DNA from: a virus
Taxonomy: Duplodnaviria; Heunggongvirae; Uroviricota; Caudoviricetes
Direction: 5' to 3' (one strand)
Length of the DNA: 64,000 nucleotides
IMG/VR virus record: IMGVR_UViG_643348549_000020
Both the position numbers and the translations under genes were made by a program. Of this stretch, positions 6,921 to 36,282 are shown one piece after another (positions within the stretch are counted from its first letter, which is position 1; each line of letters begins with the position of its first letter). Below the pieces are notes generated by a model, which was not told the origin of the DNA, ran no database searches, and saw only the letters and a program-made list of their open reading frames with translations.

Positions 6921-7160
6921 TCTGTCCCCCTCTCCTGTCTGATGTCTGAATCTGTTTATGCCAGAAAACAACAGGCACCCCGGAGGGTGCCTGTGTCATG
7001 ACGGAATAAAATTTCTGAAACTCTTCACATTTCCGGCAATTGCCTGTAGCCGCAATAATGACGCTGCATTACTTTTTTGATGCCTGAAAAATAACTCCAT
7101 AACGTTAATCTTCATCGTTCTCTCCCGCAGCTCCGCTAACTCTGCGGGATTTTTTTATTT

Positions 7161-32122: not shown

Positions 32123-32339
32123 CAGAATCCTTCCAGATAAATAGCACTCCCCTGTTCGGGGTCCATCCCTCTTCTCCCTGCGCGCTACTTAAGTATTTTT
32201 GATTCTATTCCGGCGCCGTCCGGAACTTCAAACGCGTTGAAAATAAAAACAAAAACCCGCCGAAGCGGGTTAAGTGCGGGTGCGTTGAGGATGCCTGACA
32301 CATCAGAGGTGGCGAGGGATTTCTCCCCCGCCTGGTCTC

Positions 32340-32495
32340 TTACTCCTCAGGTTCGTAAGCTGTGAAGACAGCGACCTCCGTCTGGCCGGTTCGGATTCGT
32401 ACCTCGCAGAGGTCTTTCCTCGTTACCAGTGCCGTCACTATGACGGTTAAACAGATGACGATCAGGGCGATTAGCATCGCCTTTTGCTGCTTCAT
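32340..32495 (-). CDS. hok: Hok-family type I toxin (51 aa); overlapping mok-type leader frame extends to 32552
   Basis: MKQQKAMLIALIVICLTVIVTALVTRKDLCEVRIRTGQTEVAVFTAYEPEE corresponds to HokD/RelF as I recall it. Confidence 0.8.
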   Translation of the reverse strand: MKQQKAMLIALIVICLTVIVTALVTRKDLCEVRIRTGQTEVAVFTAYEPEE

Positions 32496-32740
32496 AGCCT
32501 GCTTCTCCTTGCCTTTCGGCACGTAAGAGGCTAACCTACGTGTGTAGAGCATAGATATGGCCTCAGATTAATGTTAAGCGTCTTGCCGGACGCGTAATGT
32601 TAACTGGGGCTTTTCTCTATCTGCCGTTGGTGTTCATGCCCGAGGCAGATAGCCTCAAGCACCCGCAGCAATTCTACTTAACTCTCGCTTTACCGCAAAC
32701 CGTTTTTACCCGATATGGGAATTCCCATATCGTAATGAAT

Positions 32741-32960: not shown

Positions 32961-33323
32961 TCATTGGCGCACCTCCTGCGGCGGTTCTGGTAGCGGCATC
33001 CAGTGTGACGGTTTCCACGACGCACCAGGAATTATCCACCCATCATTAGCGTCAGGATGCCCCGGGATGTAAGTAGCCAATTTCATTCGCCAGTCACCTT
33101 TCCTGTCAAACTCCACGGCAACAAGAACGGCTGTTTTGGTATTCGGCATTCGCTCACTACAGCTTATCCAACCATCCGGAGTTACCGGAGAATTGCCAGC
33201 CTTGCGCATGGCAATCTCCATGATTTCAACCATATCTCCTGGTGGAATTTTACAATGCTGACCAATATGCCTCTGCTGCCTGGCATATTCGAGGATGTGC
33301 TCCAGCTTGATACGATTAATCAT
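32961..33323 (-). CDS. DUF551-family phage protein
   Basis: C-terminal ...WMPLPEPP motif characteristic of DUF551. Confidence 0.55.
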   Translation of the reverse strand: MINRIKLEHILEYARQQRHIGQHCKIPPGDMVEIMEIAMRKAGNSPVTPDGWISCSERMPNTKTAVLVAVEFDRKGDWRMKLATYIPGHPDANDGWIIPGASWKPSHWMPLPEPPQEVRQ

Positions 33324-33691
33324 GATTTATCTCCCTGAAGCATGGCTTCGCGGCAGTCGTTCCAGCCTTCAGCATAATCACTATACGCAAGAGGCCAACC
33401 GTTTCTGTATTCACGCGGCAACTTATCAGGCACTACCAGCGCTGGCGGCGCGGAGAATAGTGGTTTAGGTGATATTTCCGCACGTTTTGCGTATGCTTCA
33501 ACTGTGTCAGGGTTAAACAGGATTATGTTTTCACCGCATTCCCACGCTATCGGTTCTGCTTCCAGCGATGCCAGTGCAATTTTGAATAACTCGCCCTCTA
33601 CCCGTGCCATCCCTGAATTGGGGTAGCATTTCGCAATCGCTATTTTTAATTTGGCTTCTTCGATTAATTTCTCTTTGGTTAATTCAGTCAC
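33320..33691 (-). CDS. Hypothetical early protein (123 aa)
   Basis: ORF with overlapping start/stop with neighbours. Confidence 0.45.
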   Translation of the reverse strand: MTELTKEKLIEEAKLKIAIAKCYPNSGMARVEGELFKIALASLEAEPIAWECGENIILFNPDTVEAYAKRAEISPKPLFSAPPALVVPDKLPREYRNGWPLAYSDYAEGWNDCREAMLQGDKS

Positions 33692-33726
33692 TTTTCATTA
33701 CCGCCCTTTCGGGCGGCCTCCTGACA

Positions 33727-33939
33727 TTAATCGTTGTGATAACTCATAGCTTCATTTGCAGCATCAACTGGATCAACATCCCACCAGCAATAATTTGGGT
33801 CGACACCTTCAGGTGTCCACGGCTCTAATTCATTTTTTGCCGCATTCTCGTCGCCAGTAATTTTAAAAATCTGCTCTGAGAACTTTTTCACCCACTCGTT
33901 ATATTTTTCAGCGTTAATAACTTTCTGTGCGTTTGACAT
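33727..33939 (-). CDS. Hypothetical early protein (70 aa)
   Basis: ORF. Confidence 0.35.
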   Translation of the reverse strand: MSNAQKVINAEKYNEWVKKFSEQIFKITGDENAAKNELEPWTPEGVDPNYCWWDVDPVDAANEAMSYHND

Positions 33940-33987
33940 TGATATACCTCCGGTTAAGGATTAAATTTTTAACAGAGCTAAATTTAA

Positions 33988-34404
33988 TTATTCAGTTCTG
34001 GATTTTGTCACCCTGCGTATCCGCGCTTTCACGTTACGCTCAATCTGAATTAGCTTTTCTATATTTCTCCGCCTTTCCCGTTCCTCCTGGCGCAAGATCC
34101 TTACATCATCTGCCAGTCTGGTTTCTCTTTTCGCCACAGAGAGCATCCAGTCAAATGGCTCCACAACTGCACCGCAGATTTTACAGCGGACCTGACGCTC
34201 TTTTTCGTCAACCCGAACAGAGGCGTGATGACAATATGCTCTTTCCGATGGCTCATAAAGAAAATTAACCTGATTACGTGGGTCATCCTCTTTTACCGGA
34301 AATAAAACGATATTGCTTAACTCATCTTCTGGTTTTATTTCCATGCTCTTCTCCTTTGATGTGAATGCCAGCGACAATTGAAGCCTGATAGCTAATTCAC
34401 TCAC
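33988..34404 (-). CDS. Hypothetical protein with CxxC zinc-ribbon (138 aa)
   Basis: ORF; HH...CKICG motif. Confidence 0.4.
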   Translation of the reverse strand: MSELAIRLQLSLAFTSKEKSMEIKPEDELSNIVLFPVKEDDPRNQVNFLYEPSERAYCHHASVRVDEKERQVRCKICGAVVEPFDWMLSVAKRETRLADDVRILRQEERERRRNIEKLIQIERNVKARIRRVTKSRTE

Positions 34405-34811
34405 AATACCGCCTCCTGAAAATTGCCCTGATAGAACGCCAGTACACGCAGCATAACTTCACTCTTCCGGCACTCGCCACAGATTATGTTCTGTTGTCTG
34501 TCGTAGCGGCGTATTTCTCCGTCTGGTAACTTTCGAATCAATGTCTGGTCGGTTGTTTTCTCCGCTGCCTTACGCCATACGCGATACACCTGTTCTGATG
34601 TAAAAACACCGTATTTACCGGGCATGTATAAATCGCCGCAAGCCAGTACATCCACAAGGCAACGTCTGACTGAATGCCAGCCTGCTCCCGTCGCTCTCTC
34701 CAGTTGTGATATCGTCATGCGTTCATTTTTGCGTACCAGCCCGATAATTCGGGCCTTCAGTTCTTCACGCTGTTCGTGTGTAAAAGGTTTCGCCATAAGC
34801 GCCTCCGGCAA
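34401..34811 (-). CDS. Hypothetical protein, possible HTH regulator (136 aa)
   Basis: ORF; C-terminal CGEC motif. Confidence 0.4.
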   Translation of the reverse strand: MPEALMAKPFTHEQREELKARIIGLVRKNERMTISQLERATGAGWHSVRRCLVDVLACGDLYMPGKYGVFTSEQVYRVWRKAAEKTTDQTLIRKLPDGEIRRYDRQQNIICGECRKSEVMLRVLAFYQGNFQEAVL

Positions 34812-35648
34812 TCACTTTTCCGACACAATACGACCGGATGAATCGACAATCTGCCGAACAATATCCCGGTGCTTGTTCAGCTCCCGCAGCGCGGCGCAGA
34901 CACGCTCCCACTTCTGAACCTGACCTTTTGCCCGGCGCAGCTCGCGGTTAGCCACATGCAGCGATGGTAAAATCAGACCATCCGGATGTTTTCTGGTGAA
35001 CAACGGCTGTGACTGCACTGTGACCGCCACACTTTCAGTTTTTATTTCTTCCTGTGTTTCCGCTTCCCGGACTGGTAACGCAACACCTGTTGGCTGAGGA
35101 AAGGCTTTACCATCGGTTTCCGTTACCGATGCAGCTTCCGGCTCTGCCGGTAAATCAGCGCCCGGTATGCAGTAACGAAATTTACCGTTCTGATTTACGC
35201 GTGCCAGGCTCCCCGTTGCTGTTACGACCGCCAACGTGGAAGCAACCTTGCGAATGCTAACACCGAACTTATCCGCCAGTTCCTCACACGTTTTAGCCCC
35301 ATCCTGACAGATAAACTCAATCATCATGTCCGCAGTAACTTTTTGTTCGACCTCCCCGGTCAGCACATCCGGTACTTCAGACTGTGCTGGCTGTTCTTCG
35401 GTTACCCCGGATTCACCTTCACCAGCCAGAAACCAGGTGTGACCCGTTTTATCAACAACGCCATTTTTTTTGAGTTCCCACAGTTCGTTGAGAACTTCTT
35501 CACGGCTGATATCAAGCCGCGCCGCCAGTTCAACAGAATTGGCTTTACCCATCGCTTTCAGTGCATGCAATACGGTTCCCATTAAAATTTCCTCCGGATA
35601 AAAATTACTTCTCAAATCAGACAAAACCAGCCGCTTTCCGGCGTTCAT
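34812..35648 (-). CDS. Hypothetical protein with two winged-helix-like segments separated by an acidic linker (278 aa)
   Basis: ORF; repeated helix-turn-helix-like segments. Confidence 0.45.
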
Positions 35649-36282
35649 ACTCCTGTTTCAGCAACTCAATTGGCGTTGGTCCCAACGGGCGTTTTGGTGC
35701 CGCCAGTTGTCGCCGTACTGGCGGAACGCTCAGGCCGTTACTAACATGCTTTGCCCATTTCGTCAGCTGCCGTTCTGCAAGCCGTTTTAATTCCCCTTCG
35801 GTCATCTGGCGTTCAATCCCCTTTGAACGCATCTCGAGGCAAATGTGATACAGCACAGGCTGAGGCCACGGATATTTGTCGCTTCCGTTATATCGCCAGG
35901 ACTCATTACGCCAGCGGCGATACTCCTCCATCACAGCATCCACCGTCAGGCCAAATGGATTGGCCCCGCTTTCCGAAATCAGCGCCACAAACTCAGCCAG
36001 GTCCGGAGGCCATGTTTCACCCGCCCGGCAGCGGTCCATGCACTGGCGGCAGACCTGCCGGATTTGCTGCTCAGTCATCGCGCCAATCTGTGCAATCCAG
36101 AGCTTCGAAGGTGCGGCCCCGTTCTTCTGGGTCCAGCGGTTCGAATAAACCTCCCCCATGAGTTCCCACAGCTTCCAGGCCGTTTCCGTCGCTGATAAAT
36201 CCGTTTTCACGTTCCCACTGCTCACGTGCTGCCCGAATTTCCTGAACTGCCCGTGATGCGGTGCCACCTGGTGCTGCTGCAT
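35617..36282 (-). CDS. Replication protein P-like (helicase loader); true start probably internal
   Basis: C-terminal half colinear with lambda P (YPWP...L, ...[11 protein letters not shown]); follows O-like gene. Confidence 0.5.

Follow-up and report, generated by a model that had tools for sequence, protein, structure and literature searches.

Five small genes behind the replication genes of an Escherichia coli O157:H7 lambdoid prophage: a mosaic of catalogued accessory genes with a putative Ren relative

What are five small, closely spaced genes doing between the replication genes and hok of a lambdoid prophage, and do they belong together? The question is raised by IMG/VR virus record IMGVR_UViG_643348549_000020 (Caudoviricetes), of which we analysed a stretch of 64,000 nucleotides (nt), hereafter the window. 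Five co-directional open reading frames (ORFs) lie on its minus strand at 33320-35648, between the replication genes and hok, where an earlier reading made from the letters alone (the sequence-only reading) had placed them; that reading described a tightly packed block without assignable function, in a nin-like region known as a hotspot for anti-defence genes. Here the genes are called A to E in their order along the minus strand, A being a member of the DUF1627 family and B a member of the DUF977/YdaW family. We consider it likely that the five are accessory genes of an O157:H7 lambdoid prophage brought together as a mosaic, that B is Ren-like, and that they do not make up a single system.

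Gene structure, assortment and setting of the block

All five genes are real, and A to D are under purifying selection. Each gene is preceded by a strong Shine-Dalgarno (SD) site of its own, all five reading frames are intact, and each product matches a PHROG family (E-values from 1e-43 to 1e-131). For A, B, C and D, the ratio of nonsynonymous to synonymous polymorphism (pN/pS) is 0.25-0.30, 0.19, 0.16-0.25 and 0.17-0.22, respectively, in comparison with the ungapped alleles that diverge most. Three of the genes start inside their longest ORFs. The internal ATG codons at 35582 (A), 34796 (B) and 34344 (C) are marked by strong SD sites 6-8 nt upstream (GGAGG 8 nt before the first and 6 nt before the second, AAGGAG before the third; D has GGAGG before its ATG at 33939), these methionines are precisely where the PHROG, Pfam and family alignments begin, and PGAP/RefSeq annotation chose identical starts. 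The lengths of 123 and 70 amino acids (aa) given for E and D in the sequence-only reading hold, and those of 278, 136 and 138 aa for A, B and C are longest-ORF values for products that are really 256, 131 and 118 aa long. With the corrected starts, successive gaps of 34, 15, 56, 48 and 35 nt open up, and most of the apparent packing by overlapping stops and starts is, like the inflated lengths, an artefact of longest-ORF calling. The sole true overlap is an ATGA shared by E and the next gene, which belongs to the DUF551 family, is predicted to be translationally coupled to E, and forms part of the same array; a block limited to five ORFs leaves this sixth gene out.

The genes do not travel as a unit. 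Among 80 IMG/VR loci selected for carrying A, about three quarters also have B, about two fifths have C, and fewer than one eighth have D, E or the DUF551 gene. In Escherichia phage loci the gene directly behind a full-length A is in every case a DUF977 member, and the identity of this neighbour to B ranges from 48 to 100% while the A alleles are 82-99% identical. In 17 A-carrying genomes of different species, a DUF977 profile match stands next to A only in E. albertii, and at ten other A loci the downstream neighbours vary, from winged-helix proteins of the Rrf2 or TrmB type to a large P-loop ATPase and small unknowns. An obligate A-B pair was therefore rejected, since B is absent next to A outside Escherichia and the alleles of the two genes assort freely. 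At the scale of the whole block, no phage record covers at least 80% of the 3 kb, and at least 80% of the surrounding 6.5 kb is present in only 33 of 5426 complete E. coli genomes, with some part of it in 5011. The exact window proteins occur on about 1000 or more contigs and are annotated in RefSeq, and homologues are found in the isolated phages ArgO145, Shigella phage 75/02 Stx and POCJ13 as well as in induced vB_Eco phages.

Genes C, D and E are also found in a different operon. In the Shiga toxin (Stx) phage ArgO145, gp17 and gp16 are homologues of C and D (95 and 87% identical, respectively) and lie in the early-left operon, between the recombination genes and the integrase, flanked by genes annotated as Ead/Ea22-like; E homologues lie at the same end of many Stx phages. 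Because C, D and E occupy the exo-xis region in these phages, the block can be described as the junction of a 'ren-slot' pair (A and B) with a cassette of exo-xis type (C, D, E and DUF551). The independent assortment of A to E means that the block is not a unit: it is a mosaic that arose by cassette shuffling from at least two sources, and not a system.

The window between 32000 and 38500 is 100% identical over its full length (megablast) to several E. coli O157:H7 chromosomes including that of TW14359, in which the RefSeq annotation places the integration site of the lambdoid prophage at ompW. The gene order is cI and then, on the minus strand, cro, a YdaT-family gene in the place of cII, an O-like initiator bearing a DnaT domain, P, A, B, C, D, E, DUF551, hokD-sok, two small hypotheticals, DUF968, RusA and a Q-type antiterminator, and the order taken from RefSeq agrees with Pfam, PHROG and Rfam scans of the window (Table 1). 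This placement between P and Q makes the interval positionally equivalent to the ren-nin region of lambda. The nin-like label of the sequence-only reading was thus right as to position, but it does not describe C, D and E, which are not specific to nin regions and sit in the exo-xis region in Stx phages.

Inside the block, promoter-like and terminator-like sites are as numerous as expected from shuffled sequence, and an Rfam scan over 28-40 kb at an E-value of 0.1 or below placed nothing within 33320-35648, a picture that fits read-through transcription from pR. Hidden RNA genes in the block were rejected, as the sok, DicF, STnc100-like and isrK-like matches all fall outside it. The block was also considered as a defence system and rejected, because PADLOC-DB, which covers defence and not anti-defence systems, gave only weak winged-helix cross-hits to helix-turn-helix (HTH) proteins of the Csa3/CasR type, at E-values of 1e-5 or worse. 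A PDB sequence search with each of the five single sequences gave no match, and an NCBIfam scan of the five gave no family-level match.

Table 1. Coordinates of the block, of the genes that flank it and of other features in the window
Feature	Position	Strand	Longest ORF	Evidence and remarks
A, 256 aa, DUF1627	34812..35582	-	34812-35648	PF07789 281.1 bits; phrog_630 E-value 8.5e-131; RefSeq annotation DUF1627
B, 131 aa, DUF977/YdaW family	34401..34796	-	34401-34811	PF06163 241.1 bits; phrog_142 E-value 2e-43
C, 118 aa	33988..34344	-	33988-34404	phrog_1621 E-value 8e-54; zinc knuckle and long helix
D, 70 aa	33727..33939	-	33727-33939	phrog_4659 E-value 3.7e-50; acidic (pI 4.4), Trp-rich orphan
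E, 123 aa	33320..33691	-	33320-33691	GTG start; phrog_5117 E-value 2.6e-50, full match
23-nt element, AGGAGGCCGCCCGAAAGGGCGGT	33700..33722	-		SD site and 7-bp GC hairpin with GAAA loop
DUF551 gene, 120 aa	32961..33323	-		PF04448 E-value 4.6e-22; RefSeq; ATGA overlap with E
P, lambda-type helicase loader	35617..36078	-		PF06992 E-value 4.3e-16; phrog_109; RefSeq; upstream boundary of the five-gene block
hokD/sok	32340-32664	-		Complete type I toxin-antitoxin locus; hokD coding sequence 32340-32495
sok, Rfam match	32490-32664	-		111.7 bits against a gathering score of 59
YdaT-family gene, 183 aa	37083-37634	-		At the cII position; PF06254 E-value 1.6e-5; annotated 'toxin YdaT family protein'
isrK-like Rfam match	32250-32331	-		Weak: 24.9 bits, E-value 0.053
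Terminator-like hairpin with T tract	32254-32271			End of the isrK-like match
DicF small RNA, directly followed by an STnc100-like match	39395-39651	+		DicF 76.7 bits; STnc100-like 39.8 bits, under the gathering score of 47

Several features around the block are worth recording in their own right. An immunity-region layout of the Rac type is found in the window alongside a P loader of lambda type and the O-like initiator with its DnaT domain. Just downstream of hok, the isrK-like match ends in a good terminator-like hairpin, and the stretch may be an uncatalogued prophage small RNA (sRNA) or merely the terminator of hok. On the other strand, DicF is joined by the STnc100-like match; a 2026 preprint relates STnc100 to the prophage PasD sRNAs and names DUF1627 among the genes conserved near PasA and PasC. 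The best phage DNA match to the block itself, at 86.5% identity over 39% of the query, is Actinobacillus phage vB_Apl-pPE4 (PP818812.1); a phage labelled as one of A. pleuropneumoniae is odd for sequences otherwise from Enterobacterales, and the record may be E. coli-derived or mislabelled.

The winged-helix proteins A and B

Gene B passes the cut-off of the Pfam DUF977 model (22.1 bits) and covers all of its positions (1-134 of 134). The PHROG family to which it belongs, phrog_142, is named 'Ren-like exclusion protein', and lambda Ren itself matches that family at an E-value of 1.6e-41. A direct BLASTP comparison of B with lambda Ren gives an E-value of 2e-6, and the C-terminal motif ECRxSxxMxRVLAxY is invariant in an alignment of six DUF977 alleles with lambda Ren. 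Given the match to phrog_142, the pairwise alignment and the common C-terminal motif, we treat B as a remote homologue of lambda Ren.

This relationship provides the functional anchor for B. Ren is said, after work by Toothman and Herskowitz in 1980, to be the classical determinant of resistance to Rex exclusion. According to Thomason and colleagues, pR drives transcription of lambda ren together with O and P, and ren is 'likely involved in DNA replication'; they also report two-hybrid interactions of the Rex proteins with both O and Ren. The K-12 member of DUF977, Rac ydaW, appeared as a blocker of the toxicity of RcaT, the toxin of retron-Sen2, in a TIC/TAC screen. The naming of these genes varies between records: DUF977 genes are called 'LygF' in many phage records and 'Ren-like exclusion protein' in one, and the label 'ydaW' or 'YdaW family', which Pfam and EcoCyc use for DUF977, has been given to DUF1627 genes in some phage records.

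Gene A likewise belongs clearly to its family, passing the Pfam DUF1627 cut-off of 28.1 bits and covering model positions 1-155 of 155. Its layout was taken from an alignment of 40 full-length members (21-79% identical) and an AlphaFold2 (AF2) model built on that alignment: residues 1-55 form one winged helix and residues 84-140 another, each followed by a variable disordered linker, and a conserved helix with the motif IPxFT...EIRRTKxKLxxLEKLR spans 208-255. The model as a whole has a predicted local distance difference test (pLDDT) score of 78.7, and each of its three folded parts exceeds 90. An internal-repeat hhalign comparison relates the two winged helices to each other (probability 94%), so that the tandem winged-helix-like segments pointed out in the sequence-only reading are borne out, and the second of them shows a relationship to that of B and Ren as well (hhalign probability 93%, E-value 2.5e-7). 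The C-terminal regions of A and B, in contrast, show no relation (hhalign probability 1.6%), and a BLASTP comparison of the whole proteins is not significant. The idea that A and B are paralogues throughout was consequently rejected, their relation being confined to the winged helices.

Fold comparisons place A among winged-helix proteins in general. Foldseek and a PDB profile search with A returned only proteins with tandem winged helices and generic ArsR, MarR, AspA and Z-alpha domains, at E-values between 1e-4 and 1e-2, with no Foldseek match to the PDB at an E-value of 0.001 or below, and the resemblance to other tandem winged-helix proteins, with E-values no better than 1e-3 to 1e-2, is at the level of fold only. 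The Z-alpha domains of ADAR1, ZBP1 and PKZ fall in this same range against the A profile. The hallmark of a Z-alpha domain is an Asn and a Tyr on the recognition helix (Tyr177 of ADAR1) together with a Trp in the wing; across the DUF1627 alignment the Tyr position is taken by Ala, Met or Leu, and A was rejected as a Z-alpha domain.

The DUF1627 family is small and conserved in its position. An exhaustive HMMER search of 1.84 billion representative proteins gave 164 clusters at an E-value of 0.001 or below, and a scan of one genome per species gave 17 DUF1627 loci, all in Enterobacterales or unclassified isolates, the named genera being Escherichia, Salmonella, Serratia, Citrobacter, Enterobacter, Buttiauxella and Scandinavium. 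At every locus with a checkable upstream ORF, A comes directly behind the last of the replication genes. This holds across 21-80% identity and in loci from Escherichia, Salmonella, Serratia, Citrobacter, Enterobacter and Buttiauxella; the start of A often lies within about 20 nt of the stop of the replication gene, or overlaps it. The upstream gene itself may be a P-type loader, an AAA+ loader of the DnaC/IstB type, an O-like HTH_36 protein or a Phg_2220_C protein. Alleles of A that are 96-100% identical to that of the window are found behind both P-type and DnaC-type loaders, which makes a co-adapted physical partnership with one loader unlikely.

Part of the DUF1627 region also turns up elsewhere. 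At 1634-2011 of phage ArgO145 (NC_049918), a 125-aa protein annotated as DUF1627-domain-containing lies beside an excisionase-like HTH gene and the integrase. This short gene lies far from the replication genes, so a portion of DUF1627 can stand as a gene of its own in a different slot.

The cassette of C, D and E and the element before E

The protein encoded by C has a disordered N-terminus carrying the conserved motif ExELSNVVxFP, a C38-x-H40...C54-x2-C57 arrangement of potential zinc ligands and a basic helix of 55 residues (63-117). The family counts about 119 database clusters, the named ones from Escherichia, Shigella, Salmonella, Kluyvera, Erwinia, Pluralibacter, Yersinia and Morganella. 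In an alignment of 27 sequences, with identities down to 46%, H40, C54 and C57 are invariant and C38 is nearly so, and the segment LRQEExxRRxNIEKLIQIERNAKARIRR, which is basic, is very conserved. The AF2 model (pLDDT 73 overall, 86-95 in the helix) consists of a small beta-ribbon and the single 55-residue helix. The near-invariant ligands and the modelled ribbon make the zinc ribbon proposed in the sequence-only reading plausible, although the match to the TFIIB-type zinc ribbon of Pfam (PF08271, Zn_Ribbon_TF), at 18.2 bits, stays under the 29-bit cut-off, and Foldseek compares C with the TFIIB N-terminus at an E-value of 0.56. Searches of the PDB and BFVD by sequence, profile or fold gave no significant relative of C, the fold searches returning none below an E-value of 0.27. 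The N-terminal motif of C, compared with beta-clamp, SSB-tail and TonB-box motifs, showed no convincing match.

Chimeric and truncated versions of C are common in the databases. Six database proteins join parts of C to an Ead/Ea22-like N-terminus, to DUF977, DUF1627 or DUF1133, or to unrelated domains. The fusions of DUF977 or DUF1627 with C were considered as Rosetta-stone evidence and rejected, as they are half-gene chimeras from recombination or deletion with varied break-points; what the C chimeras do illustrate is the free recombination of the cassette.

D has a narrow distribution: its 120 database clusters are all at least 70% identical and all 'hypothetical', and every named one comes from Escherichia, Shigella or Enterobacteriaceae. 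No similarity of C or D to lambda Ea22, Ea8.5 or the small exo-xis ORFs was detectable by sequence against the PDB. E, next to its full match, has partial matches to phrog_660, phrog_60 and phrog_3323, and its relatives are annotated as Ead/Ea22-like in phage records; against Pfam, including Ead_Ea22 (PF13935), it matched no family at an E-value of 0.1 or below. The N-terminal 50 residues of E recur on proteins of 135 and 277 aa, and residues 31-123 share 93% identity with genes that lie before DUF551 in Stx phages (2.7-4.7 kb in the phage records). An N-terminal module that is found on longer proteins and a C-terminal part that is shared with Stx-phage genes indicate that E is itself a chimera.

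Between D and E lies a 23-nt element that is conserved to the base while both of its flanks differ. It stands 8 nt upstream of the GTG start of E, and its hairpin separates the SD sequence AGGAGG from the GTG. The centroid structure of the hairpin has a free energy of -15.5 kcal/mol, and the minimum free energy of the surrounding 76-nt region has a z-score of -2.6. Of the first 100 loci, 20 contain the exact 23-mer; at least 120 IMG/VR contigs carry it, and it recurs in ArgO145 (NC_049918) at 7102-7124. Across 140 copies, the distance to the downstream start codon is 5-10 nt and the small ORFs that follow belong to at least four unrelated families, and D was detected as the upstream ORF for only 20 of the 140. 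The GC hairpin (33701-33716) lacks a U tract, so that an intrinsic terminator was considered and rejected. The sequence context suggests a portable cassette for gene starts or mosaic junctions: the element may serve as a recombination joint, or its hairpin could bring the SD site near the start codon. A hairpin that brings an SD site close to a start codon has been described for gene 38 of phage T4.

Possible functions of the block and its known relatives

The reading we favour, a mosaic of accessory genes with B as a Ren-like member, builds on direct observations of gene structure, family membership, folds, positional conservation and independent assortment. As for what the genes do, we infer that the block consists of small accessory genes of the delayed-early rightward (pR) operon, in the ren/nin slot of lambda, with A and B made early from pR alongside the replication proteins O and P. 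Both proteins would bind nucleic acid or protein partners through their winged helices, and the amphipathic C-terminal helix of A may mediate dimerisation. B would most likely act as Ren does, shielding the replication phase of the phage from exclusion or abortive infection of the kind caused by Rex or retron toxins, probably by direct binding of components of those systems. C is probably a dimeric protein of zinc knuckle and coiled coil whose N-terminal short linear motif would dock on a partner, and D, as a small acidic protein, is of a kind that often acts as a protein inhibitor.

Several points weigh against this account. The link to Ren is one of remote homology, with 29% identity between B and lambda Ren, and lambda Ren has no match to Pfam DUF977 at an E-value of 0.01. 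B is also the second gene after P, with A in between, whereas the ren gene of lambda and the end of P overlap. The ydaW finding, reported in a preprint, was made by overexpression screening and concerns the Rac gene of K-12 and not the allele of the window, and the literature, including a search by protein accession, gave no experiment on any of the five alleles. What is proposed for C and D is guessed from nothing more than their shape and charge, and A may keep its place beside the replication genes simply because lambdoid phages conserve their gene order. Finally, a fold as generic as the winged helix would suit A and B just as well if they were ordinary transcription regulators.

We give a minor but real chance to the proposal that A and B are ordinary DNA-binding regulators of the lysis-lysogeny decision, of induction or of host genes, with C, D and E resembling the exo-xis genes that modulate induction. 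The lambda exo-xis genes, including ea22, are reported to influence lysogeny and induction, and the homologues of C, D and E in the exo-xis region are consistent with such a role. The phenotype of lambda Ren, on the other hand, is directed against Rex and is not regulatory. YdaW is listed among the predicted transcription factors of E. coli, and DUF977 occurs in fusions with Fic toxins, where it is presumed to bind DNA in a regulatory role. The winged helices also have matches among the ArsR, MarR, DeoR and Lrs14 families, but every one of these regulator matches is under its family cut-off and reflects the fold only, and A has neither the ligand-binding nor the classical dimerisation domain of these families. 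Operator-like repeats, which no search was aimed at, did not turn up.

That A is instead an accessory replication factor, a physical partner of the initiator or the helicase loader, seems improbable to us. The position of A argues for it, as the gene comes first after the last replication gene at every locus checked and often at a distance of about 20 nt or in overlap, as does the description of lambda ren as a likely replication gene by authors working on it. However, a partner would have to serve upstream genes of unrelated families (P, DnaC/IstB, HTH_36 O-like and Phg_2220_C), near-identical alleles of A pair with P-type as well as DnaC-type loaders, and lambda can form plaques without its nin region, ren included, provided that polarity on Q is relieved.

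It is very unlikely that the five genes are one co-functional island for anti-defence or host takeover with interdependent parts. Such an island would account for genes that are co-directional, closely spaced and free of internal terminators above chance, and for the DUF977 gene that always follows full-length A in Escherichia phage loci. The co-occurrence data already largely refute it: no phage record covers as much as 80% of the block and few complete E. coli genomes carry as much of the surrounding 6.5 kb, C accompanies A in about two fifths of loci and D or E in fewer than one eighth, B alleles vary freely against A and disappear from its side outside Escherichia, and C, D and E belong to a different operon in Stx phages. 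That the ORFs are decaying remnants of a defective prophage, without current function, is scarcely credible: O157:H7 carries many defective lambdoid prophages, the Rac ydaW of K-12 is a pseudogene and truncated C genes abound, but here five intact frames with strong SD sites are combined with pN/pS values of 0.16-0.30 for A to D and with homologues in isolated phages.

A bolder extension of the favoured reading, to which we attach a low probability, would make the slot behind the replication genes a dedicated counter-defence position. DUF1627 and Ren/DUF977 would then be alternative or additive occupants that mask replication complexes or intermediates from the sensors of abortive infection, such as RexAB and retron toxins. 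If this holds, A would represent a new anti-defence family, Enterobacterales-wide and recognisable by position alone.

How far, then, does the anti-defence suggestion of the sequence-only reading carry? Its phrase 'without assignable function' overstates the novelty of the genes, two of which fall in Pfam families (DUF1627 and DUF977) and all five in PHROG families, and the hotspot idea finds no support for the block as such and indirect support for B, through Ren homology and the effect of ydaW on RcaT. None of the five ORFs matches a well-characterised nin protein, and their families are catalogued but uncharacterised, so that counter-defence survives as a lead, mainly for B and A; the search is thereby narrowed to the A-B pair, and chiefly to B. 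All five genes belong to catalogued families, and Ren/YdaW gives B the only functional anchor in the block. For now the outcome is a clean-up in which three gene starts are corrected and the block is resolved into a mosaic of catalogued accessory genes, and the understanding of phage biology is unchanged unless a counter-defence role is shown experimentally. It nevertheless ties DUF977/YdaW/LygF to lambda Ren, which gives a very common E. coli prophage gene a testable phenotype (Rex and retron toxins), describes the whole architecture of DUF1627 and its conserved position immediately behind the replication genes, and brings to light an element of SD site and hairpin before unrelated genes that may be a shuffling joint or a translation device.

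Set against known systems, the pieces of the block show both likeness and difference. The layout of two winged helices in A is common to ScpB, the subunits of ESCRT-II and the C-terminus of SelB, which are its best Foldseek or profile matches; the DUF1627 model of Pfam describes only the C-terminal two thirds, to which the present work adds the complete architecture, a distribution seen only in Enterobacterales genomes and the conserved position. The downstream cassette resembles the Ead/Ea22-like cassettes of exo-xis regions, in that E is followed by DUF551 and C is fused to an Ead_Ea22 N-terminus in some genomes, and it differs from those of Stx phages in lying in the rightward operon. As a full-length DUF977 protein, B occupies the same position after the replication loader as Rac YdaW and phage LygF, with about 50% identity to the LygF proteins. 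Like lambda Ren, B combines an N-terminal winged helix with the ECRxSxxMxRVLAxY motif, and both genes lie downstream of the replication genes in what would be the pR operon; unlike Ren, which has 96 aa, B has 131, with an extra N-terminal helix and an insert of 20-30 residues.

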